32,000 nt of DNA, taken from positions 2,580,001-2,612,000 of the forward strand of contig NZ_CP195536.1 in NCBI RefSeq assembly GCF_051307035.1, in the 5' to 3' direction. Under the pieces are notes generated by a model. That model was not told the origin of the DNA. It ran no database searches and saw only the letters and a list, made by a program, of their open reading frames with translations. Every line of letters begins with the position of its first letter. The stretch's first letter is position 1. Of this stretch, positions 5,206-27,280 are shown piece after piece. The DNA is from Psychrobacter sp. DM4. GTDB taxonomy: Bacteria > Pseudomonadota > Gammaproteobacteria > Pseudomonadales > Moraxellaceae. Position numbers and translations under genes: made by a program.

Positions 5206-6159
5206 ATGAATAACCCAAGCATTCAGTGGTTCCCAGGACACATGAACAAAGCCCGTAACGAGATCAAAGAGATCATGCCAGAGATGGATGTGGTCATCGA
5301 AGTCATCGATGCGCGCATTCCCTACAGTAGCGAAAACCCAATGGTAGCAGCGCTGCGCGGACAAAAACCCGTCATCAAAATCCTAAATAAAGCTGACCTC
5401 GCCGACCCCAACCAAACGCAGGCGTGGATTGAGTATTTAGAGAGTCAAGATAAGGTCAAAGCTATCTCTTGTGATGACAACAAATCTAGCGAAGTTAAAC
5501 GTATCGTACAGCTATGTAAGCAATTGATGCCCAATAAAGCAGGCACAGGCAGACAAATTAAAGTGCTGATCATGGGCATACCCAACGTGGGTAAATCAAC
5601 GTTGATTAACAGTCTAGCAGGACGCAGTATCGCCAAAACGGGCGATGAACCTGCCGTCACCAAGTCGCAGCAGCTGATCAAAATCGATGATGACATCATG
5701 CTCTATGATACGCCCGGCATGCTCTGGCCAAAAATTGAAAACCCAAATTCGGGCTATCGCTTGGCGGCTACAGGCGGCATCAAAGACACCGCGTTTGACT
5801 TCGCTGATGTGGCAGGTTACACCGCTGAGTATTTGATTCAGGCCTATCCCGAACTGCTCAAAGAGCGCTATAAAATTGAAGATTTGCCACAAACGGATTG
5901 GGAGTTTTTTGAGGTTGCGGGACATAACCGAGGTCTGCTAAAAAAAGGCGGCATCGTTGACACTTACCGTATGTCTGAGATTTTGGTCAATGAGCTGCGC
6001 AGTGGCACGCTGGGTCGCATTACGCTTGAGACGCCAAAAATGCGCGAAACGGAGCTATTATTGGTAGAGGAGTTACGCGCACAAGCGGAAGCCAAAAAAG
6101 AAGCGAAGTTAGAGGAAAAGCGCTTACGTAAGAAGCGTGCAAGGAAGAATCGGAAGTAG
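5206..6159 (+). CDS. rbgA: Ribosome biogenesis GTPase A (YlqF/RbgA), circularly permuted GTPase
   Basis: The N-terminus IQWFPGHMNKARNEIKE is the YlqF signature. The GTPase motifs are in permuted order: G4 NKADL, then G1 GIPNVGKST, then G3 DTPG. The C-terminal tail is basic. Confidence 0.9.
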   Translation: MNNPSIQWFPGHMNKARNEIKEIMPEMDVVIEVIDARIPYSSENPMVAALRGQKPVIKILNKADLADPNQTQAWIEYLESQDKVKAISCDDNKSSEVKRIVQLCKQLMPNKAGTGRQIKVLIMGIPNVGKSTLINSLAGRSIAKTGDEPAVTKSQQLIKIDDDIMLYDTPGMLWPKIENPNSGYRLAATGGIKDTAFDFADVAGYTAEYLIQAYPELLKERYKIEDLPQTDWEFFEVAGHNRGLLKKGGIVDTYRMSEILVNELRSGTLGRITLETPKMRETELLLVEELRAQAEAKKEAKLEEKRLRKKRARKNRK

Positions 6160-6192
6160 AATTTCAATGCAGCTTAATAAAATAAGTATTCA

Positions 6193-6201
6193 TTTGCTTT
6201 A
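6193..6201. repeat. Left copy of a 9-bp direct repeat (TTTGCTTTA) bordering the low-GC cassette
   Basis: An identical 9-mer recurs at 7806-7814. In both copies an AAGG(T/A)AT Shine-Dalgarno-like string follows within a few to about 10 nt. Confidence 0.4.
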
Positions 6202-6227
6202 AAAAAATTTAAGGTATTTCTTGAGCT

Positions 6228-6638
6228 ATGAGAAGCAATAAAACTAAATGGATAATTTATACAGTGTTAGTGGGTTTAATCCCAATTCTTGCAAGATTCA
6301 TTGTTTGGCTTGTTACTAAAGAAGGTAGTGTAGATCCACTATCAGCTTCTGATTTCGTTGCTTTCGGTCTAGTCTTGCATATTTCTAACATCAATGAAGT
6401 AGAACATTACTCTGGGCGAGAACAGCAATGGAAGACTGTTCAAAATGGCATTTCGATTACATTCATAGCCTTTTATAGTATTTTGTTAGCTCTAAATTTA
6501 ATAGGGGATAATATTGTTGATATTAGAGCTATAACATTTTGTGCTATTGGCTTATCAGTAGTTTCATTTTTAATCAGCTACTCAGTGTATGATAAGGTCT
6601 CAAGAACACCTACTTCTTCTATCGAGAATACGATATGA
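6228..6638 (+). CDS. Hypothetical 4-helix integral membrane protein (cassette gene 1)
   Basis: 136-aa ORF with four hydrophobic segments: WIIYTVLVGLIPILARFIVWLV, FVAFGLVLHISNI, ISITFIAFYSILLALNLIG and ITFCAIGLSVVSFLISYSVY. It has low GC and AGA/ATA-rich codon usage unlike the flanking genes. I recognise no family. Confidence 0.7.
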   Translation: MRSNKTKWIIYTVLVGLIPILARFIVWLVTKEGSVDPLSASDFVAFGLVLHISNINEVEHYSGREQQWKTVQNGISITFIAFYSILLALNLIGDNIVDIRAITFCAIGLSVVSFLISYSVYDKVSRTPTSSIENTI

Positions 6639-6763
6639 CTACTATAATTATAGTTTTATCTGTTATTTTAGCTTTTATAGGTATAGTTATAGCTATTTGG
6701 TCAATAATAGATACTCGAAGAAAACACTACGACGAATACATCAAAAGGAAGAGAAGTGATTAA
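6635..6763 (+). CDS. Hypothetical 42-aa single-pass membrane micro-protein (cassette gene 2; not in the ORF track)
   Basis: My own translation is MTTIIIVLSVILAFIGIVIAIWSIIDTRRKHYDEYIKRKRSD*. Its ATG overlaps the stop of gene 1 (ATGA at 6635-6638), and its last 8 nt overlap the GTG start of gene 3. It has one hydrophobic helix plus a basic tail. It fills an otherwise unexplained 117-nt gap in a tight operon. Confidence 0.5.
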   Translation: MTTIIIVLSVILAFIGIVIAIWSIIDTRRKHYDEYIKRKRSD

Positions 6764-7685
6764 GAATATTATATACCTAGATGAGGATAAGATGTATTCA
6801 TTGTCTTCACAGCTCTTTGAAGGTGTGACTGAATATGTTTTGAATGAGAAAAACTTGGAGAAGTCTGAATCAGAAGAGCAGAAAGGCTATATTTCAAGTG
6901 GCAAGATAGTAGGAGACATCTTGAAGAATAGCGAAAGAAATACTGAAAAGAAGTTTCTAAATGATTATTCATACACACTTTTCGAAAAGAAACTTATAGA
7001 AGAAGACAAAGTAATTATAGCTTCATACCAAAGTTCTAATCTAGAAAAACTGATGGCAGAAAAATCATTTATAAAAGTTACAGCAAAAGCAACATTTAAC
7101 GATATAGACTCAATAAGGAATACTCTCGATAATTTTAACCGGATGGGCAAAGCTTTAACTTATGTAACTAATTATGAGAATATTAAATCAGCTAAAGAAG
7201 AGCTTTCAAGAGTCCAAAAAAGTAAGAATGAAAGGTCTAGAATCAGTGAAGTAAGCACTAGGCTCAAAGACATTAGCAATATAGACAAACAAGCTTCGGA
7301 AACTGGTTTACAGTACGATGAGGAGTTTCTTAATGATCTAAGCTTTCTTCTAGAATACGGATTTCAAAGTCAATTAGAAGTACAAATGAAATTATCAAAT
7401 AACATAGCTTCAGCCAATCTCAATCGTGATTTTTTTAGAGAATCCGAAGACTTAATCATTCGCAGGTATTCAAGACAAACGGAGGTGGAGTTCACTTTGT
7501 TTGGTATTATTACACAGTATAAAAAAGATCAAGTCGCTCCTTCTAAATCAGAAGTTGATCCTCAGACTATCAAAGAAGCTATTATGAATATGGTTGCTCA
7601 TGTAACTAATTTAGAAGCAGCATTTACTGGCCGACTTATTAACGAAATAATCATTGATCCAATTGCATTATATACCGAATTATAG
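6756..7685 (+). CDS. Hypothetical soluble Lys/Glu-rich protein, 309 aa (cassette gene 3)
   Basis: GTG start with an AAGGA Shine-Dalgarno 6 nt upstream. There are no TM segments, no Walker A and no Cys. A probable coiled-coil lies around ENIKSAKEELSRVQKSKNERSRISEVSTRLKD. The N-terminus is IIYLDEDKMYSLSSQLFEG and the C-terminus is IIIDPIALYTEL. Codon usage is low-GC. Confidence 0.75.
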   Translation: MIKNIIYLDEDKMYSLSSQLFEGVTEYVLNEKNLEKSESEEQKGYISSGKIVGDILKNSERNTEKKFLNDYSYTLFEKKLIEEDKVIIASYQSSNLEKLMAEKSFIKVTAKATFNDIDSIRNTLDNFNRMGKALTYVTNYENIKSAKEELSRVQKSKNERSRISEVSTRLKDISNIDKQASETGLQYDEEFLNDLSFLLEYGFQSQLEVQMKLSNNIASANLNRDFFRESEDLIIRRYSRQTEVEFTLFGIITQYKKDQVAPSKSEVDPQTIKEAIMNMVAHVTNLEAAFTGRLINEIIIDPIALYTEL

Positions 7686-7708
7686 ACAAAACTACTTAGC
7701 TTACGTAA

Positions 7709-7725
7709 GGTGCGCACAGCGCACC
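7709..7725 (+). other. GC-rich stem-loop just after the cassette (possible terminator or RNA-stabilising hairpin, no U-tract)
   Basis: GGTGCGC (7709-7715), loop ACA, GCGCACC (7719-7725). It is preceded by the perfect palindrome CTTACGTAAG (7700-7709). No T-run follows, so it is not a canonical intrinsic terminator. Confidence 0.35.
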
Positions 7726-7805
7726 AATAAAGACTTACTACCTTCTTGTAGCAATCCTCATTACACCCCATAAACTACCTTATTTATCAACTACAAAACA
7801 CTATC

Positions 7806-7814
7806 TTTGCTTTA
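7806..7814. repeat. Right copy of the 9-bp direct repeat (TTTGCTTTA) bordering the low-GC cassette
   Basis: Identical to 6193-6201. It lies immediately upstream of the mutY Shine-Dalgarno (AAGGA) and TTG start. Confidence 0.4.
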
Positions 7815-7826
7815 CAAGGAATACGT

Positions 7827-9047
7827 TTGCCTACTCCCTTCTCTCAGCCTGATTTAGCTCTAAATTCTTTCGCGCCGCGCCTCCTTAACTGGTTCGAAAC
7901 GGACGGACGCCATGATCTACCTTGGCAACAGCATCAGACCGACACGCCCAACCCTTATATCGTCTGGCTATCAGAAGTCATGCTCCAGCAAACGCAAGTG
8001 AAGACAGTGCTGCCCTACTTTGCGCGTTTTATGACCTCATTCCCAACGGTGCAAGATTTAGCCGCAGCCGACTGGGATACCATCGCTGAGCATTGGGCAG
8101 GTATGGGCTATTATGCGCGCGCACGTAATTTACATAAAGGCGCGAAGCAATTAGTAGAAATTATTAATGAGACAGGTGACTATCCGCAAACCCTAGCCGG
8201 TTGGGAGGCAATCTCTGGCGTTGGCCCATCGACGGCAGGCGCGATTATGGCGATGGGACTCCATAAATATGGCGTGATCTGTGATGGTAACGTCAAACGT
8301 GTGCTGACGCGCTGGGCAGGAATTGACGGTGATATTACCAAGTCCGCTACCACCAAAGAGCTGTGGTCACTAGCGACACGTTTAACGCCTAAAGAGAACT
8401 CAGGGCTATTTGCACAAGCGATGATGGATATGGGCGCGACTTTATGCATTCGCCGTAGTCCTGCTTGTACGTTATGCCCGTTAAAAGACGATTGTATCGC
8501 TCATGCGCAAAGGCGCGAAACGGATTATCCAGTCAAAGCCAAAAAACAGCCGAAGCCGAGCAAGTTTAGTAATGCACTTGTTATCGAAAATGAGAGTGGC
8601 GAGATACTTTGGCTACAGCGTCCTGACAATGGTATTTGGGGCGGGCTGTGGAGTTTGCCTTTACAGTTTGTTGAAAAGGTTAGCGGAGAAATTGGTAAAG
8701 CTAATAAGACTGTTAATAGTGTATTATTAGCAGTCGCTAGTAACGAAAAAGTGTACGAAACAGAATTTACTACTGCTGAGCAAGTCATCTTTGAATGGCT
8801 GGCAGAACATAATCTGCAAGCGACGTCAGTCAGTCATACCTTACTCGATGATGCCCCGATCAAGCATTCATTAACCCACTTTCATTGGTACTTACAGCCG
8901 CAGAAGCTGATTATTGATAACTTACAAATCAGGACGCTTAATGACAAACTCGCAGCGGCTAACATAAACTTTAAATGGTTAAGCCAACAAAAAGCGCGCG
9001 ATAGTCTAGGACTACCGCGCGCTATGGTTAAGATTATCGAGATCTAG
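7827..9047 (+). CDS. mutY: A/G-specific adenine DNA glycosylase MutY
   Basis: Contains HDLPWQ and YIVWLSEVMLQQTQVKTVLPYFARFM, the HhH-GPD region, and the 4Fe-4S ligand pattern C-x6-C-x2-C-x5-C (CIRRSPACTLCPLKDDC). The C-terminal MutT-like domain is longer than in E. coli. TTG is the only plausible start, with AAGGA 6 nt upstream. Confidence 0.9.
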   Translation: MPTPFSQPDLALNSFAPRLLNWFETDGRHDLPWQQHQTDTPNPYIVWLSEVMLQQTQVKTVLPYFARFMTSFPTVQDLAAADWDTIAEHWAGMGYYARARNLHKGAKQLVEIINETGDYPQTLAGWEAISGVGPSTAGAIMAMGLHKYGVICDGNVKRVLTRWAGIDGDITKSATTKELWSLATRLTPKENSGLFAQAMMDMGATLCIRRSPACTLCPLKDDCIAHAQRRETDYPVKAKKQPKPSKFSNALVIENESGEILWLQRPDNGIWGGLWSLPLQFVEKVSGEIGKANKTVNSVLLAVASNEKVYETEFTTAEQVIFEWLAEHNLQATSVSHTLLDDAPIKHSLTHFHWYLQPQKLIIDNLQIRTLNDKLAAANINFKWLSQQKARDSLGLPRAMVKIIEI

Positions 9048-10306: not shown

Positions 10307-13207
10307 CTAAGGTTTTACAGCGACCAATACGCGTATAGAGTCAGGCACCAAAGATAGATGTGAGAGTGCTTGCTCACCTTGTGCTTTGAGTAGCTCTAAG
10401 CGCTCAATCTCCGCAGGTCTTACATTTGGGTTAATCGTTTGCAGATGTTTGAGACGTTTGATCTCGCGTGACCACTGCTGGCTAAATCGGTCGCTTGCCT
10501 GCGCGCCTATCTCACTGAGCTGATTACGCGCAATCGCTTCGGCCTCGTAATAACGCTGCTCAATAATATCACCGCGTACTTTTATCACTTGACGCGCGCG
10601 ATTCTTATCCAGACGCTCTATGTGCGGCATAATCATATCGCTACTGATACGCGCAGATAAGTCGCTGCCTTGTTCACTGATAAAAACGCGAATGTTTTGT
10701 GTACTCAAAGTGGCTGGCAAGTTCAATAATTTAGGGGCAATAGCTTCGACACGGAAGTTAACCTCTAGCATAACCATACCTTGCGGCATAGCAGCACTTT
10801 TTAGCATTGCAACCGTGGTGTTACCAAAGGTGCTCGTGCTCGCCAGCTCATAGATGGCCTGCATGAGAGGGTGCTCATGCGTGATAAATTCGATATCTTC
10901 ACGTACAAGCGCCTGCTCACGCTCAAAAGTTAAGCTCATACCGTCTTCGTCACCAAGCGGTAACCCATCGATATAATCACTAATCTCAGTACTATCGATA
11001 GGTGCAATCACCCACGAGCCATCGCGTTGAATATTATGGTCGATATTCGCTGATGCAAAGAAGCGCTCAATGAACTGCGGTAACAGATTATTCCCATCAA
11101 ACTCATGCATGGCGCTTGCGATACGACCTGCGACCCGTGGACGGCACGAATTGTACTCAAGCAGACGATCGCGCCCTGCCTGCAATTGCGCCTCTAGTCC
11201 TAAACGCAATTGCTTGGCATCTGTAACGAGCGTCTGCAGTGCTGTGCGGTTATCTGCGGTATCTACGCCTTCTAGTAGCGGTTTTAAGGTGGCAATGTAT
11301 TGCTCTTGCACGCTTTGCGCCGTTGGCGAGATTTGATTGAACATATTGAGCGCATTGTTATACCACTGATATAGACGCTCTTGCGCCGTACTCTGTACAT
11401 AAGGGATATGTAGCATGATTTGCTGCGTCTGACCGATACGATCTAGGCGGCCGATGCGCTGCTCCAAAGTATCTGGATTGGCAGGTAAGTCCCACAGTAT
11501 CAGCTGGCTTGCAAACTGAAAGTTACGCCCTTCAGAGCCAATCTCTGAACACAGTAATATCTGCGCGCCCTCGCTATCAGCGAAGAAGGCAGCGGCCTGA
11601 TCACGTTCAAGCAAAGTCATTTGCTCAGTAAAAATAGCGGTCTTGATGCCTGCATGCAGGCGCAATACTGCCTCTAGGCTCTCGACGGTCGCACCACTAC
11701 GAGCAATAAGTAGTACTTTTTGTTGTTTGAGTACCCCTTTTAAGATATCGATCAGCCAAGGGACACGCGGATCATCCTCAAGCCAGCCACCATCAGGCTG
11801 ATTCTCCTCGCCCCATAGCTGCTCACGCAATTTGCCTGTCGTCTGATAGCTATCCACCCAAGCTTCAGGCAGTGGTAGCGGATGCGCCTGACTACTACGA
11901 CCATGAAAGCCCTTGACACTCTCACGCGTATTACGAAAGAGAATACGCCCTGTACCGTGACGATCTAAGAGCTCATTCAGCGCGTGCGTACGCAGCTTAT
12001 CATCCTCATTGACAGATGCCAGCTCATCACTACTAATGTCTAATAACTGACTAAGCGCTTTGATCTGATTATCGCTAAGGGGTTTATCTTCTATTAACAC
12101 TCCAGCGACGGCAGCCGTTTCAGCAAAAGCGTCTTGGCTTGCGATAAATTCATCTAGATCATCAAAACGATCAGGATCCAGCAGACGCAGACGAGCAAAA
12201 TGACTTTGCGCCCCCAATTGCTCGGGCGTTGCCGTCAGTAGCATGACTCCGGGCGTCTCTTCAGCGAAATCCGCTATCAAGTCGTATTTGTCATTGCCGC
12301 CTTGCCCCTCATCCCAATGCAAATGATGCGCTTCATCAACGACCAGTAAATCAAACCCAGCTTCCATCGCTTGATCGTAGAGATCAGGATGGTCAAGAAG
12401 CAGATCCATACCAGCGATGATGCATTGCTCAGTAGCAAAGACATTTTGCTCAGGGTCATGCTCTTTGATCGCAGCCGTACGTACCAAATCAAACAGCGCA
12501 AAGTTTAAATTAAAGCGGCGACGCAGCTCGATCATCCACTGATATTGCAAGCTATCAGGCATAAGGATTAACACCCGCTCAGCTTTACCTGTGAGTAGCT
12601 GCTGATGAATAATTAAACCCGCTTCTATCGTTTTACCTAGACCTACCTCATCTGCGAGCAACACACGCGGCGCGATACGCTTGCCAACCTCGTGCGCGAT
12701 ATAGAGCTGATGCTCAATGATGTCAACGCGTGCGCCCATCAGTCCTTTGAGCGGGTGACCGGCCAGCGCCGATTGCATACGCAAGATATCTTGGCGCAGC
12801 TCATACCAATCTCCGCGCTCAATACGACCAGCCAATAGGCGCTCAAGCGGCTTTGCAAGGGTGATATTGGCAGCAAGGCGCGTCTCCATAATAGGTTTAA
12901 CAGCGCCCTCATCGTTATCTTCAACGCTGTATTTGAGCACGCCCATCACCTCATTGACGCCATTGACCATATAGGTTTTGCCATCTTGGTCGTAGATACT
13001 GTCACCAATCTTGAAAATTACGCGCGATAGTGGCGCAGAACTCTTGGCATAGACGCGCGTCTCTTCGCTCTGCGGAAATAAAATATGCACGCAGCGATCA
13101 TCAACATCGATAACCACACCTAAGCCAAGCTCGGACTCAGTATCGGATAAGTAACGTTGGCCAACGGCGAATTCAGTACTGTGTAATGTAGCGGTCGTAA
13201 TAGTCAT
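10307..13207 (-). CDS. rapA: RNA polymerase-associated SNF2/SWI2 ATPase RapA (HepA)
   Basis: Contains GQRYLSDTESELGLGVV, helicase motif I LLADEVGLGKTIEAG, motif II DEAHH and a C-terminal helicase domain, collinear with E. coli RapA. The track start (TTG at 13231) was replaced by the ATG at 13207 (MTITTATLH...). The exact start is uncertain. Confidence 0.93.
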   Translation of the reverse strand: MTITTATLHSTEFAVGQRYLSDTESELGLGVVIDVDDRCVHILFPQSEETRVYAKSSAPLSRVIFKIGDSIYDQDGKTYMVNGVNEVMGVLKYSVEDNDEGAVKPIMETRLAANITLAKPLERLLAGRIERGDWYELRQDILRMQSALAGHPLKGLMGARVDIIEHQLYIAHEVGKRIAPRVLLADEVGLGKTIEAGLIIHQQLLTGKAERVLILMPDSLQYQWMIELRRRFNLNFALFDLVRTAAIKEHDPEQNVFATEQCIIAGMDLLLDHPDLYDQAMEAGFDLLVVDEAHHLHWDEGQGGNDKYDLIADFAEETPGVMLLTATPEQLGAQSHFARLRLLDPDRFDDLDEFIASQDAFAETAAVAGVLIEDKPLSDNQIKALSQLLDISSDELASVNEDDKLRTHALNELLDRHGTGRILFRNTRESVKGFHGRSSQAHPLPLPEAWVDSYQTTGKLREQLWGEENQPDGGWLEDDPRVPWLIDILKGVLKQQKVLLIARSGATVESLEAVLRLHAGIKTAIFTEQMTLLERDQAAAFFADSEGAQILLCSEIGSEGRNFQFASQLILWDLPANPDTLEQRIGRLDRIGQTQQIMLHIPYVQSTAQERLYQWYNNALNMFNQISPTAQSVQEQYIATLKPLLEGVDTADNRTALQTLVTDAKQLRLGLEAQLQAGRDRLLEYNSCRPRVAGRIASAMHEFDGNNLLPQFIERFFASANIDHNIQRDGSWVIAPIDSTEISDYIDGLPLGDEDGMSLTFEREQALVREDIEFITHEHPLMQAIYELASTSTFGNTTVAMLKSAAMPQGMVMLEVNFRVEAIAPKLLNLPATLSTQNIRVFISEQGSDLSARISSDMIMPHIERLDKNRARQVIKVRGDIIEQRYYEAEAIARNQLSEIGAQASDRFSQQWSREIKRLKHLQTINPNVRPAEIERLELLKAQGEQALSHLSLVPDSIRVLVAVKP

Positions 13208-13843
13208 AGGACGATGTCTTTTTGTACTCAAGTGATGAATTAAAAGCGGTATAGGCGTTGTCGATACATTTGACCAAAACTAAGCGATTAGGCTTAAGGA
13301 AATGAGCTTTGAGTCTTATAGCAAAAAACGCACCATTATACAGGGTTGGCAGTTAGATGCGCTCTTAGTAGTCAATTTTCAAGACCTTTACCATAGCTTT
13401 AGCTCTATTCAAGATAAGGCACCTAACAGAGGATAGAAAAATAAACAATCTAGTCTCGGGAAACCGTTATATCTGAACCTTAACAGTTAGTGTGTTACCA
13501 ATTAGATACTAATATTTACGGTATGAAATAATAAATAACTAAAAATTATATTTAGACATTTAGCAAACATAATGTTAATGTTTGTGAAATAACCACAAAT
13601 ATAATATGGTTTTAAATGAATATAACTCTCTATTTAGAGCTGAACAATACATCAAATAGTGCTTAATAATCTTATGTATTGCACATTTGAACATATAAAT
13701 TCTAACCGTTCATAAGTTTTTGATTGACTTTATACATCGTTTAAATGTTTACAGGATTTTTTTATTAGAAGTAAATCCGTTGATACGGATATTCAATAAT
13801 CAACATTAGTTGATAATAATATAGTTTAAGGACAAACCCTATT

Positions 13844-16162
13844 ATGAGCACCGCCAAAAAAGTTGGTTTTTTTAACCAAGTTAGTACTCAAGTCACCCTT
13901 GTTCTATTTCTCGCCCTTGCAGCAGTACTAGCGGTGGTTTTCTATGTTGTAGATAAGCAAGGTTATGAGAAAATCCGCTTAGAGTCTGAAAAACTTATCG
14001 TTCAAACGGGTAATGCCACCGTAGATAGCATCTCAACAGATATTGAGCGTGTTTCGCGTAGCGCTTTGAGCTTACAAAAAAGTGTACAGACGCTACCTGT
14101 TGAAGAAGATATTCTACAGGCCAGTCTAAACAATGCCTTTAACAAAGATGACTTTGGCATATTGGGCAGTGGTGGTATTTGGCCTGAGGTAGGCGCTCTT
14201 GGCAATGATGTAGCAACGCACCCGTTCTTGATGGTACGCCAAGATGGTAATTATCAGCCTGTGCTTACCGATCCAAACCCTAGTAATCCTTATTTTCAAG
14301 AAGGCTGGTTTGGCGCGGTAAAAATGATTAAGCCGGACGAATGTTTGTGGCAGCACGTACGTCCTTCGCAGGCTAAAGGTGAGCTTGCTATGAGCTGCGG
14401 ACTCTCAATCGAACGTGACGACGCGTTTTGGGGTGCAAGTACCGTTAACTTTACGCTCACGCAGTTACAAGATAACATTGTTAAGCTAAATGAACGCATT
14501 GGCTCAGGCTATATGCTCTTGATTGATAACAGTGATAAAGTGATCTCCTCGTCTAATCCTGAGCGTTTAAGTTATATTGATGAGGCCACAGGCGTACCCT
14601 TGACTATACAGCAGGTCGTCAACTCAGACGCCGCTTGGCAACCTATTTTTGACTTCTTAGACAACAAAAGAGCTGAAACCGTTCAAAATGTTGCGCCGCG
14701 CATCTCACCTACTGTCCAACAAGTTCTAGGCGGTCTTGATCAAGCTTATGGCAATGATCCAGAAAATGGTTACTTTATGGTCAGTTATGCCGCTTATCTG
14801 GATAATAAAGAAAATCAAAAAAATAATTTAGGGAATCGCTTACTTCAGAGCTTTGATCTGGTTAATGATCAATACTACGAAGGTAGTCAAGCCTATGTGT
14901 TTGAGATTCCTGAGACCTACTGGAAGCTGATTATTGTACAGCCCAACCTTGAGATCGACTCTATTGCTGATAACTTAAGTAAAAACTTGATCAGCTGGAT
15001 TGCTCTAGCGCTCTTGATAACCGCTGCTGTGATTTATTTCATGTTGAACTTCTTAGCCTTTAACCCTTTGAAGAAAACCACTGATAAGATCTCCAGAGCT
15101 GAAAATCTCATCGACAACAAGCAATACAATCAGCTAAGCGACGTTAAATTTGCTAAAGGTCGCAACGAGATTGGCCTGGTTAATGGCTCTATTAATGATC
15201 TACTAGGGCGAATTCAATCGAACGAAGGTAAGCTTGCCAACATCAACCAACAGTTAGAAATCAAAGTCGAAGAACGTACCGCTGAGTTGCAAGACACGCT
15301 AAAAGAGCTAAAAAACTCACAACTACAGCTCATACGCTCAGAGAAAATGGCAACTTTAGGACAGATGGTGGCAGGCGTTGCACATGAGGTTAATACGCCC
15401 CTATCTTATGTACAGAACAATCTTGAGATCATAGGTCAGTTGACTGAGCAATACGAAGAATTGATTGAGCTGGTCAAGGGTCTAAAAGAAGTTAAGACGG
15501 ATACCGCTGGTTCAGAAGAGAAGATTGATCAGTTGATGGCTAGTATTATTAGTGCGTCTGATGAAATTGAAGAGGACGATCTCTCAGATGAGCTCAAAGA
15601 GCTGATTAAGGACTCCTTGTTCGGTGTTGAGCAAATTACTGAGATGGTTCTCAATCTACGTAACTTTGCCCGCCTTGATGAGTCTAAAGTCAAAACTATC
15701 GATGTGCGCGAGTGTATCGAGGCCTCGCTCAAAATCGCTGGTAATTCGCTCAAGCATCAAGAGATCGTTACTGACTTTGCAACGACGCCTGAGATCAAGT
15801 GCTCACCGTCACAGATTAATCAAGTACTGGTCAACCTGCTAAACAACGCCTCACAAGCTATGGACAACGACTCAGGCGGTAAGATTGAGCTGCGTACGCG
15901 TGCGGATGATACTAACGTCTATATCGATGTGATCGATAATGGTAAGGGCATGAGTCCTGAGACACTCGCTCAGATATTCGAGCCTTTCTTTACAACCAAA
16001 GGCGCAGGTGAAGGCACAGGACTTGGTATGGCGATTAGTCAGCAGATCATGGAGCAGCATAACGGCGATATTAAAGTTGTATCAACTGAAGGAGTTGGCA
16101 CTACCTTTACCTTAATGCTCCCTATTAACAATAACTTAACCGAACAAAATATCGTAGCTTAA
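13844..16162 (+). CDS. Sensor histidine kinase with a large periplasmic Cache-like domain and HAMP/coiled-coil linker
   Basis: Two TM helices (VTLVLFLALAAVLAVVFYVV and LISWIALALLITAAVIYFMLNFLAF) flank about 345 aa of periplasmic sequence. H-box MVAGVAHEVNTPLSY, N-box LVNLLNNASQAM, G1 DNGKGM, G2 GTGLGMAIS. Confidence 0.9.
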   Translation: MSTAKKVGFFNQVSTQVTLVLFLALAAVLAVVFYVVDKQGYEKIRLESEKLIVQTGNATVDSISTDIERVSRSALSLQKSVQTLPVEEDILQASLNNAFNKDDFGILGSGGIWPEVGALGNDVATHPFLMVRQDGNYQPVLTDPNPSNPYFQEGWFGAVKMIKPDECLWQHVRPSQAKGELAMSCGLSIERDDAFWGASTVNFTLTQLQDNIVKLNERIGSGYMLLIDNSDKVISSSNPERLSYIDEATGVPLTIQQVVNSDAAWQPIFDFLDNKRAETVQNVAPRISPTVQQVLGGLDQAYGNDPENGYFMVSYAAYLDNKENQKNNLGNRLLQSFDLVNDQYYEGSQAYVFEIPETYWKLIIVQPNLEIDSIADNLSKNLISWIALALLITAAVIYFMLNFLAFNPLKKTTDKISRAENLIDNKQYNQLSDVKFAKGRNEIGLVNGSINDLLGRIQSNEGKLANINQQLEIKVEERTAELQDTLKELKNSQLQLIRSEKMATLGQMVAGVAHEVNTPLSYVQNNLEIIGQLTEQYEELIELVKGLKEVKTDTAGSEEKIDQLMASIISASDEIEEDDLSDELKELIKDSLFGVEQITEMVLNLRNFARLDESKVKTIDVRECIEASLKIAGNSLKHQEIVTDFATTPEIKCSPSQINQVLVNLLNNASQAMDNDSGGKIELRTRADDTNVYIDVIDNGKGMSPETLAQIFEPFFTTKGAGEGTGLGMAISQQIMEQHNGDIKVVSTEGVGTTFTLMLPINNNLTEQNIVA

Positions 16163-25596: not shown

Positions 25597-26034
25597 TTAT
25601 TCTTTTTGTGCATTGAGATCGCGCATCAAATCACTTGCTGCCTCAGCACTTAGCAAATACGGGTTAAAATCTATAGTCGTAGAATACTTAAGATAGATGG
25701 CTGCATTATCTTGGGTAGGTGATGCGTAATTCATCGACCATTTTGCCCATTCTCTATGCTTGAGCTCATGAGTCTCGATAACTTGTAAGTCATGATGACG
25801 TTGATCTGCCATCAAACTGTAGAGCAAGCGATTGATTTGTGCTCTTGGCCCTTCGATAGTCTGTAAAAAGTAGTTTTTGTTAAAAATAAGCATACCTGTT
25901 ATGCCATTAGCTGCATTGTTCTCTTGAGCCTGCTGAAGTATTTCATTAAAATCTTTTGCTGACACGTCAGGGTTTGCGCGACTAGCATAAGTCATACTCA
26001 CTAGAATGTGGGCATCTGAAGTTGATTGAACCAT
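25597..26034 (-). CDS. Short BLUF-domain blue-light photoreceptor (paralog 1)
   Basis: 145 aa with the BLUF hallmarks TYASR (Tyr), NGITGMLIF, YFLQTIEG (Gln), DQRH and WAKWSM (Trp/Met). AAGGA Shine-Dalgarno 6 nt upstream. Confidence 0.9.
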   Translation of the reverse strand: MVQSTSDAHILVSMTYASRANPDVSAKDFNEILQQAQENNAANGITGMLIFNKNYFLQTIEGPRAQINRLLYSLMADQRHHDLQVIETHELKHREWAKWSMNYASPTQDNAAIYLKYSTTIDFNPYLLSAEAASDLMRDLNAQKE

Positions 26035-26065
26035 GAGTTGTCCTTTTATATGTTATAAAGTCTAA

Positions 26066-26590
26066 TTAGCTAATTGAGAACCAAGATTTTTTCTTTTTAG
26101 GCGCAGCAAGTGCTTGTTGCTCTTGCTCATCTAACATCGATAATGTATCAATCAATAACATGATTTGGTTGGTGCTCATAAGGTAAGGATTAAACTGTAT
26201 TCCTGTTGAATATTTGAGCGCCAAGCTTTTATTATCGTCGCTTGGAATCAAGTATTTCATCGACCACTTATTCCAGCGTCTTTGTTCAACTTCAGCGCAT
26301 TCAATAATTTGCAATGAGAAATGACGATCATCTTTGACCAGTTTTCGCAATAGCTCATTAATGACAGGTCTAGACCCTTCTATACTTTGCAAAAAATAGT
26401 TATGATTGAATACTAAAGCGCCAGTAATGCCATTACGCTCGTTGTTCTGCTGCGCTTGCGCTAGAATACGAGTGACCTCACCGTTTTCGTTATGGTTGTT
26501 ATAACGACTAATATAAGTGAGGCGTAAGATAATATGTTCGCCATGTAGCCTTTGTGAGTTTTGTGCTTGTGAGAGCTCAGCTAATTCCAT
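26066..26590 (-). CDS. Short BLUF-domain blue-light photoreceptor (paralog 2, longer C-terminal extension)
   Basis: 174 aa with TYISR, NGITGALVF, YFLQSIEG, DDRH and WNKWSM. By eye it is roughly half identical to paralog 1 over the domain. GGAG Shine-Dalgarno 6 nt upstream. Confidence 0.9.
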   Translation of the reverse strand: MELAELSQAQNSQRLHGEHIILRLTYISRYNNHNENGEVTRILAQAQQNNERNGITGALVFNHNYFLQSIEGSRPVINELLRKLVKDDRHFSLQIIECAEVEQRRWNKWSMKYLIPSDDNKSLALKYSTGIQFNPYLMSTNQIMLLIDTLSMLDEQEQQALAAPKKKKSWFSIS

Positions 26591-26677
26591 TAAGTACTCC
26601 AGTTCATTCGATAATACGTGATTGTTGGTTATAGCTAGATGATGCTGTGCTATAAAAGTGCAATTAAGATGCCAGAA

Positions 26678-27280
26678 CTACTGTCTCATCTTTTTGATAA
26701 AGCTATCCATGCCGCCAGATAACTTATCACTACTCGACTCTTGGATACTTTGCGCCAACGCCAATAATTGTGCGGTGTTGTCACATTGCTCTAAGTTTAA
26801 AAGATAGCCCCAAGCCTCTTGCGGCGGTGCGTTTTTTTCGATGTAAGTGGCAAGTTCTGACTTCAATATCTCGTAATTGGCATCTGGCAGCTTAGACTTT
26901 GGTGGATTTCCGATAGAGGCTACTTCATCTAGCTTTTGACTGTTAAAAGTTCGCTCAAATTCAGCTTCACTATTTTGTATAGTCGGTTTTGTTATTGACG
27001 ATGGTCTAGATACCCTTGGCGTAGAAGAAGATGGACTTTTTGAAGAACCAATAACTTCAATACAATCGAACTCTAACAATAGCTCAAACAATGGCGTGAC
27101 GCCGCCAAAACTTGCAAACATTTTGCTTTGGTTCAAAGTATCTAAATAGTTTTGATAGGTCCTTTTACCATCAATCATAATGAGCAATGTTCTTGCCTCT
27201 CGCGGCAAAACTCCTATGCTATGATTTTTGATCTCATCGCGACCTATTTCGCTTTTTTGAAAAACATCACCATATTTCAT
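26678..27280 (-). CDS. Hypothetical protein, 200 aa, first gene of the BLUF cluster
   Basis: Clean ORF co-oriented with both BLUF genes, 87 nt upstream of paralog 2. It has an N-terminal globular region (LPREARTLLIMIDGKRTYQNYLDTL...), a Ser/Pro-rich linker (SSKSPSSSTPRVSRPSSITKPT) and a helical C-terminal region. I recognise no family. Confidence 0.7.
   Translation of the reverse strand: MKYGDVFQKSEIGRDEIKNHSIGVLPREARTLLIMIDGKRTYQNYLDTLNQSKMFASFGGVTPLFELLLEFDCIEVIGSSKSPSSSTPRVSRPSSITKPTIQNSEAEFERTFNSQKLDEVASIGNPPKSKLPDANYEILKSELATYIEKNAPPQEAWGYLLNLEQCDNTAQLLALAQSIQESSSDKLSGGMDSFIKKMRQ

Follow-up and report, generated by a model that had tools for sequence, protein, structure and literature searches.

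The window analysed here, a 32,000-nucleotide (nt) stretch of the chromosome of Psychrobacter sp. DM4, carries a compact cassette of three co-directional genes, referred to below as memA, the small gene and the DUF6414 gene. memA (6228–6638, + strand) starts with ATG and encodes a four-helix inner-membrane protein of 136 amino acids (aa) and 15 kDa. The small gene (6635–6763, +), also with an ATG start, encodes a single-pass membrane protein of 42 aa and 5 kDa, and the DUF6414 gene (6756–7685, +) is read from a GTG and encodes a soluble, acidic protein of 309 aa and 35.7 kDa. In the sequence, the stop of memA overlaps the small gene by 4 nt (ATGA at 6635–6638) and the small gene overlaps the DUF6414 gene by 8 nt (6756–6763); the three products are most likely made together through translational coupling. 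Two genes outside the cassette anchor it, namely rbgA on the left (5206–6159, +), which encodes an RbgA-type GTPase of ribosome biogenesis (Pfam MMR_HSR1/RsgA_GTPase), and mutY on the right (7827–9047, +; Pfam HhH-GPD and NUDIX_4). The three overlapping open reading frames (ORFs) between rbgA and mutY had been described in a first-pass annotation of this DNA made without database searches, and their coordinates, strands and both overlaps could all be reproduced.

All three ORFs were accepted as real genes because they are kept as a set in every locus examined. The cassette genes are under purifying selection, with ratios of nonsynonymous to synonymous substitution (dN/dS) of 0.09–0.26 for memA, 0.18–0.5 for the small gene and 0.07–0.17 for the DUF6414 gene, and the range obtained for the small gene identifies the 42-aa ORF as a real gene in its own right. 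The GTG at 6756 was taken as the true start of the DUF6414 gene because residues 1–12 of its product are conserved family-wide; Y7, L8, D9 and K12 are invariant and all lie upstream of the ATG that NCBI uses. The deposited DM4 protein is N-terminally truncated (297 aa, from Met13), so that window positions 6756–6794 were missed. In Escherichia coli NADC1036 the gene for the protein with four transmembrane (TM) helices was left unannotated by RefSeq (L079, 7001–7417), and the 42-aa gene is omitted from most metagenome gene calls.

The composition of the cassette departs from that of its surroundings. Its guanine-plus-cytosine (GC) content was 32.4%, while the 5-kb flanks reached 46.4% and 47.6%, and the first 60 nt contained 28.3% GC in the cassette and 46.7% in rbgA, where about 28% and 48% had been counted at first pass. 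The earlier remark that arginine is mostly encoded by AGA/AGG and isoleucine often by ATA in the cassette was confirmed by comparison with five neighbouring genes: AGA and AGG (AGR) made up 73% of arginine codons versus 7% in the neighbours, ATA made up 38% versus 12% of isoleucine codons, and GC at third codon positions was 27% versus 49%.

The first-pass annotation could name no family for any of the three proteins, which proved incorrect for the 309-aa protein. It matches Pfam DUF6414 (PF19952) over the full length of the family model (residues 2–306 on model positions 1–283 of 283) with 86.4 bits, where the cut-off is 25, and an E-value of 3.7e-24, and PF19952 is precomputed on all of its homologs. 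A profile search of 1.84 billion representative proteins showed the family to be moderately large, with 733 clusters at 50% identity, the representatives being single-domain proteins of about 300 aa among the matches listed. The AlphaFold2 (AF2) model of the DUF6414 protein (predicted local distance difference test, pLDDT, 75; predicted TM-score, pTM, 0.65) consists of an alpha/beta core with long helices at about residues 127–203. Its N-terminus and a C-terminal PIA.Y.EL motif are conserved, while residues 85–100, 141–180 (helical) and 261–270 form the variable segments. An acidic loop at residues 22–61 contains a QKG..SG..G motif in which Q42, K43, G44, S48, G49 and G53 are invariant; judging from the model, this segment is probably flexible, and it is a candidate interaction or regulatory site. 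The loop (window 6819–6938) has an AlphaFold pLDDT below 50 despite its invariant residues.

The AF2 model of the memA product (pLDDT 88) shows helices at residues 2–29, 40–60, 66–92 and 99–126, in agreement with the four hydrophobic helices noticed at first pass. Conserved motifs are KW..YTV.VG..P...R in helix 1 and LHISNINE.EH, which closes helix 2, and a Pfam domain was found in 0 of 515 memA homologs. The small protein comprises one TM helix, a W-S-I-I-D-T-R-R-K motif and a basic cytoplasmic tail; its isoelectric point (pI) is 9.8, compared with 5.0 for the DUF6414 protein. Foldseek comparison of the DUF6414 model with PDB and BFVD, and of the memA model with PDB, gave nothing below E 0.09, and TM-scores of about 0.2–0.5 were obtained with generic helical structures. 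Profile searches against PDB sequences were without a match. In PHROGs the DUF6414 protein matched phrog_9699 (unknown function) at 6e-7; otherwise PADLOC, NCBIfam and PHROGs were uninformative, and the small protein gave only sub-threshold TM-segment noise. A pore-forming SLATT domain in memA was considered and rejected, since NCBIfam SLATT_5, whose cut-off is 60 bits, scored only 11.5 bits over 47 residues (E 0.15). The Pfam, PADLOC, AF2 and Foldseek checks proposed at first pass therefore named one family, DUF6414, and yielded no fold match; no confident match to a housekeeping function was obtained in Pfam or NCBIfam.

The three genes travel as a unit. At every one of about 40 distinct loci, memA, the small gene and the DUF6414 gene were present in the same order with overlapping stops and starts. 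The very same 4-nt and 8-nt overlaps were observed in Pseudoalteromonas, Stenotrophomonas, Psychrobacter urativorans, Psychrobacter sanguinis and several metagenomic chromosomes, and further carriers were Nitrosomonas, Methylobacter, a P2/186-like Vibrio phage and a lambdoid prophage of E. coli. Scanning of IMG/VR revealed 45 viral contigs with DUF6414 relatives of 27–51% identity, and a hidden Markov model of memA matched the ORF directly upstream of DUF6414 in 45 of 45 viral loci; tblastn placed memA at the same position in 10 of 10 chromosomal or phage loci. The gap between the two was filled by an ORF of 41–63 aa with a TM helix and a charged tail in all 25 non-redundant viral loci and all chromosomal loci tested. 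Plasmids searched with tblastn gave no cassette match. Across hosts the GC content of the cassette was 30–43% and always below that of the host, for example 43% in Stenotrophomonas of 65–68% GC and 35% in a genome of 57–59% GC. The three genes are thus strictly linked, they encode two membrane proteins and one soluble protein, and the unit is mobile.

The rbgA locus was compared in 20 Psychrobacter species or metagenome-assembled genomes (MAGs; L007–L027). In DM4 the inserted segment (6160–7740, +; about 1.58 kb) extends from the rbgA stop codon, where aligned homology to other Psychrobacter ends, to the native upstream region of mutY, which from about 7741 onwards again resembles that of DM8 and the empty-site genomes. 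It begins with a cassette leader (6160–6227, +), about 50 nt of which are common only to cassette-bearing Psychrobacter in the alignment; a promoter and terminator scan of this leader gave nothing above shuffled expectation. The cassette may be read through from rbgA, since no terminator-like structure was found between the two; the sole hairpin (GGTGCGC-ACA-GCGCACC, 7709–7725, +) lies 3' of the cassette. The insertion has probably displaced this hairpin from its native place after rbgA, because a similar one (GGTGCGCCCGCCTAGCGCACC) directly follows rbgA in an empty-site genome (L016); it has no T-run and is at most a putative terminator. The cassette is flanked by an imperfect direct repeat of 16 nt (+ strand), whose copies are 88% identical and spaced 1577 nt apart: GCTTACGTAAGAAGCG (6122–6137), on the left, falls within the 3' end of rbgA, and GCTTACGTAAGGTGCG (7699–7714), on the right, abuts the hairpin. 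The pair may be a recombination footprint or a product of chance. The DM4 copy is chromosomal and prophage-free, its only neighbours being rbgA and mutY, with no ClpB-like gene. No integrase or transposase was found near it, and neither tRNA genes nor Rfam families were found in the window.

Occupancy of the junction varied among the genomes compared. It was empty in 4 of the 20, with an rbgA–mutY gap of 156–265 nt, other cargo was present in at least 11 more Psychrobacter, and P. urativorans was the only one of the 20 to hold the cassette. P. sanguinis is polymorphic, with the cassette at the exact site in one assembly and an empty site in the type strain, and the closest relative, DM8 (RbgA 97% identical), carries a Sel1-repeat gene at the junction and no cassette. 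The junction comparison suggested at first pass thus revealed presence/absence polymorphism even within one species, and the cassette, patchy and AT-rich in every host, does not behave as a core gene set of native composition. Alternative cargo included VapBC in two genomes; the defence candidate PDC-S14 (GIY-YIG with DUF4357) in three, in one of them together with YafQ/DinJ; an AAA_21 AriA/PtuA-like ATPase with a type I methylase-specificity fusion; unknown membrane proteins; and an IS3 fragment. The junction also holds proteins of 206–225 aa without a family (L008, 6000–6677; L010, 6092–6712; L023, 6755–7393; L015, 6194–6859), which could be further systems of unknown kind. The rbgA–mutY junction of Psychrobacter is a hotspot of defence and toxin–antitoxin (TA) cargo that is open to further mining.

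The proportion of synonymous differences (pS) among the three Psychrobacter carriers was 0.45–0.77 for the cassette and 0.68–0.83 for rbgA and mutY. The low GC content is no evidence of recent arrival, because the cassette is AT-rich in every host and its pS is near that of the flanking genes. Since the two pS ranges are close, the cassette may be an old resident of the junction hotspot that has been repeatedly lost or replaced. The view taken at first pass, that the cassette is a foreign, horizontally acquired insert, holds as far as its accessory, mobile and patchy nature is concerned, while its low GC cannot be read as a sign of recent acquisition.

Elsewhere, chromosomal relatives repeatedly occur next to defence genes. 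One adjoins Gabija, a KAP NTPase and VspR; another adjoins GmrSD, a methyltransferase and transposases; and a third adjoins HicAB, an integrase, IS110 and Mrr. Such repeated defence-gene adjacency, together with a patchy junction holding alternative defence or TA cargo, is the operational mark of defence-island or hotspot cargo. On one metagenomic chromosome (L082, 9001–14066) a type III restriction–modification pair (N6_N4_Mtase and ResIII) starts no more than 30 nt after the cassette; the dense defence island around them also includes an OLD-family ATPase, a trypsin-like protease and DUF4238. In Stenotrophomonas maltophilia (L003–L006, 7236–7310) a tRNA-Val gene precedes the cassette by about 160 nt, with no integrase nearby; tRNA genes are typical integration sites of islands.

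Prophage copies of the cassette occupy a characteristic position beside the repressor. The GenBank phage collection gave a sole match, the P2/186-like Vibrio phage, in which the three genes are 39%, about 30% and 33% identical to those of DM4 and lie between the CI repressor and the integrase. Among 129 neighbours at 18 non-redundant viral loci, the commonest Pfam families were HTH_3, CII/CP76, Phage_CI_repr/CI_C, Peptidase_S24, integrase and replication protein O, with genes of the CI, CII/CP76, Cro, S24 and integrase types dominating, and the same-strand upstream gene was a CI-type repressor in 10 of 10 prophage loci tested. The lambdoid prophage of E. coli NADC1036 reads ren-P-O-YdaT-cro-like | S24 repressor-[memA]-small-DUF6414-kil-gam-bet-exo...int, which is the position of rexA-rexB in lambda. 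Lysogens strongly transcribe the cI-adjacent slot, a recognised mosaic hotspot where either rexAB or bstA may be found (PMC8585504).

Lambda RexAB is accordingly the closest known parallel in position and architecture. In lambda, four-TM RexB (16 kDa) interacts with soluble RexA (31 kDa) (PMC11077077); the cassette pairs a 15-kDa four-TM memA product with a 36-kDa soluble DUF6414 protein, so that the four-TM partner of about 140–150 aa typical of RexAB-type systems has a predicted architectural counterpart in the 136-aa memA product. Placement downstream of cI in the same orientation, likewise typical of RexAB, was observed in all 10 prophages, in the Vibrio phage and in the E. coli prophage, and cassette relatives lie, as rexAB does, directly after cI and before kil/gam/bet/exo. 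The cassette differs from RexAB in its reversed order, with the membrane genes first, in its obligatory third component, the 1-TM protein, and in being also widespread outside prophages. Homology to the Rex proteins was tested and rejected: hhalign gave a probability of 0.25% for DUF6414 with RexA and 0.09% for memA with RexB, no Pfam RexA match was obtained, and the PDB profile search was null. RexA was also absent from the 50 Foldseek PDB matches listed for the DUF6414 model. At first pass an analogy of architecture, with no claim of homology, had been drawn with Kiwa, which consists of membrane KwaA and KwaB (DUF4868). Kiwa does combine a small multi-TM protein with a soluble partner of about 300 aa and unknown chemistry, but the cassette has three genes rather than two and belongs to another Pfam family. 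None of the three proteins gave a KwaA or KwaB match in PADLOC or Pfam, and the lambda RexAB parallel is the closer one.

The soluble family is shared with the Dodola system. According to a 2024 survey, Dodola consists of a DUF6414 protein (DolA) and a ClpB-related protein (DolB) (bioRxiv 10.1101/2024.10.26.620412, PMC11514479), and it has been experimentally validated as anti-phage (Millman et al. 2022, cited in bioRxiv 10.1101/2024.10.26.620412, PMC11514479). On that account, DolA and the soluble protein of the cassette both belong to Pfam DUF6414. The partners differ, being two membrane proteins in the cassette, with no ClpB-like or AAA+ partner at the roughly 40 distinct loci; Clp and AAA+ families were also absent from the families listed for the 129 prophage neighbours. 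PADLOC-DB 2.0.0, which is presumed to include a DolA model, gave no match for the DM4 DUF6414 protein at E<=1, and the same presumed DolA model matched 0 of 65 divergent and 0 of 10 prophage members of the family. In the profile search described above, the best 150 of the 733 clusters all came from the cassette clade, with no DolA among them, and a homolog search seeded with the most divergent DUF6414 member recovered only 19 enterobacterial copies and no DolA. By the partner criterion, the cassette is not Dodola.

Rousset et al. in 2022 reportedly described Rst_2TM_1TM_TIR of P2-like prophages, in which two membrane proteins are said to be combined with a soluble partner. The cassette resembles it in that an accessory locus of temperate phages encodes a soluble protein along with one multi-TM and one 1-TM protein, but its soluble protein is DUF6414 and not TIR, and no PADLOC system model was matched. 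The architecture of 4-TM, 1-TM and DUF6414 proteins is not called by PADLOC; the DUF6414 family itself was already known as an uncharacterised family. No description of this architecture was found in the searchable literature, where DUF6414 is mentioned in a single paper and PF19952 nowhere.

The explanation favoured here, to which we give an even chance, is that the cassette is a mobile three-gene phage-exclusion module of the abortive-infection type, with DUF6414 as the sensor and the membrane pair as the effector; the direction of signalling in this scheme is held with less than even confidence. The defence-like role suspected at first pass is partly supported, by the accessory nature of the cassette, its defence neighbours, the repressor-adjacent prophage copies and the family shared with Dodola, and the cassette is a strong candidate for an anti-phage system. 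We infer an anti-phage function, a physical complex, this signalling direction and membrane permeabilisation, which could be connected as follows. The memA and small proteins would form an inner-membrane complex, and the acidic DUF6414 protein would dock on its cytoplasmic face. By the positive-inside rule, both termini of the memA product, its highly conserved HISNINE.EH...WKT face and, in the small protein, the basic tail would all be cytoplasmic, so that they could bind DUF6414 at its conserved acidic loop. DUF6414 may use its variable helical region and its loops to recognise a phage product or state; once activated, it would switch the membrane pair to a permeabilising state. Permeabilisation would sacrifice the infected cell and thereby halt the phage, a mechanism also proposed for lambda RexA/RexB. 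Temperate phages would transcribe the cassette together with the repressor during lysogeny; in chromosomes such as that of DM4 it is a stand-alone hotspot insert.

Several observations weigh against this explanation. No catalytic or pore-forming family was found in any of the three proteins in Pfam, PADLOC, NCBIfam or PHROGs, consistent with the first-pass finding of no catalytic motif. Sensor and effector roles are not assignable from structure because DUF6414 and memA are without a structural neighbour, and relative conservation does not tell them apart because the two proteins diverge at similar rates. The parallel with Rex is one of position and architecture, since neither RexA nor RexB homology was obtained. 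The link to Dodola is indirect, consisting of a shared Pfam family and a statement in a citing review. In DM4, in L030 and L084 and in Stenotrophomonas, moreover, the cassette is a solitary insert amid housekeeping genes (e.g. alaS, lysC) with no defence neighbours.

The main competing explanation, which appears unlikely, reverses the wiring in a Kiwa- or Zorya-like manner: the membrane pair would sense attachment, DNA entry or membrane perturbation and would release or activate DUF6414 as the effector, which might, for instance, bind phage DNA or some other target. Systems with a membrane sensor and a soluble effector do exist, Kiwa and Zorya among them, and the membrane proteins of the cassette, having almost no soluble mass, could hence serve only as a sensor or a pore. 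DUF6414 is the component common to the cassette and to Dodola, where it occurs with a ClpB-like partner, and its near-invariant residues D9, S15, Q19, D70, E77, D116 and E297 could form an active or binding site. The cytosolic partner is also the effector in the RexAB-type system of Butters (PMC12894663). However, no nuclease, NTPase, protease or DNA-binding family or fold was detected in DUF6414, and PADLOC gave no KwaA/KwaB or Zor match. Abortive-infection effectors are, besides, more often small multi-TM proteins.

Sie-like, TA-like and lysogeny-switch or housekeeping roles are less likely. A superinfection-exclusion (Sie/Imm-like) system, in which DNA injection would be blocked at the inner membrane without cell death and DUF6414 would be an accessory or stabiliser, seems decidedly improbable. 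In its favour, the cassette encodes two small inner-membrane proteins, and its lysogeny-operon site, adjoining the repressor or separating it from the integrase, is where several temperate phages keep sie-type genes; known Sie proteins, however, are usually single small membrane proteins or lipoproteins, whereas here the 36-kDa cytoplasmic DUF6414 protein is obligatory and under the strongest purifying selection of the three (dN/dS 0.07–0.17). The models predict no periplasmic domains to meet the injection apparatus, and the DUF6414 family occurs in a non-membrane defence system, Dodola. Little credence is given either to a stabilisation cassette of the addiction or TA type without a dedicated anti-phage role, in which the membrane pair would be the toxin and DUF6414 the antidote, or the reverse. 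No TA-family match was obtained for the cassette proteins, a strict set of three components with a 309-aa antitoxin would be atypical, and repeated repressor-operon placement in prophages of unrelated types suggests a function from which the lysogen benefits. These points stand against the bona fide TA pairs (VapBC, YafQ/DinJ, HicAB) at the junction and other loci, the compact and tightly coupled unit that persists solitary between housekeeping genes, and its apparent long-term retention at the same Psychrobacter site. The TA and abortive-infection readings are mutually compatible. It is highly improbable that the cassette is a lysis–lysogeny modulator or a host membrane-stress or housekeeping module unrelated to conflict, even though lambda RexA also biases the lysis–lysogeny switch (PMC11077077) and the cassette is co-oriented with rbgA with no terminator between them. 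It stands alone in chromosomes without nearby phage genes (the DM4 window, L030, L084), is absent from most Psychrobacter, including DM8 and a P. sanguinis strain, and shows a deviant composition in every host and no match to a housekeeping family.

Returning to the phage-exclusion module, we tentatively suggest, while regarding it as somewhat more probably wrong than right, that the cassette is a widespread three-component anti-phage system, as yet unnamed and not called by current detection tools, which would act as a non-homologous functional replacement of rexAB in lambdoid and P2/186-like prophages and as a free-standing cassette in chromosomal hotspots, with DUF6414 as a portable sensor that could serve a membrane effector or a ClpB-like partner. 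If this is true, it would provide a first handle on how Dodola detects infection, and comparison of the cassette with Dodola could reveal the sensing and the killing part of each, because the soluble family is shared. The cassette could also be a convergent counterpart for studying the Rex mechanism of soluble sensor and membrane effector, since it occupies the rexAB slot without rexAB homology. If protective, it would be a compact three-gene system of 1.5 kb across Proteobacteria and beyond that is missed by PADLOC, covering prophages or chromosomes of E. coli, Klebsiella, Enterobacter, Vibrio and Stenotrophomonas.

Two other AT-rich stretches of the window were noticed. The deepest GC trough (28%) was located at 13501–14000, between rapA (10307–13231, minus strand) and a dCache/HisKA sensor kinase gene (13844–16162), and no Rfam family or tRNA was found there. 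A stretch at 25597–27280 (minus strand), with a GC content of 33–40% compared to the window average of 43%, carries two tandem genes for BLUF (blue-light FAD sensor) proteins (145 and 174 aa) and, after them, an ORF of 200 aa without a Pfam family.

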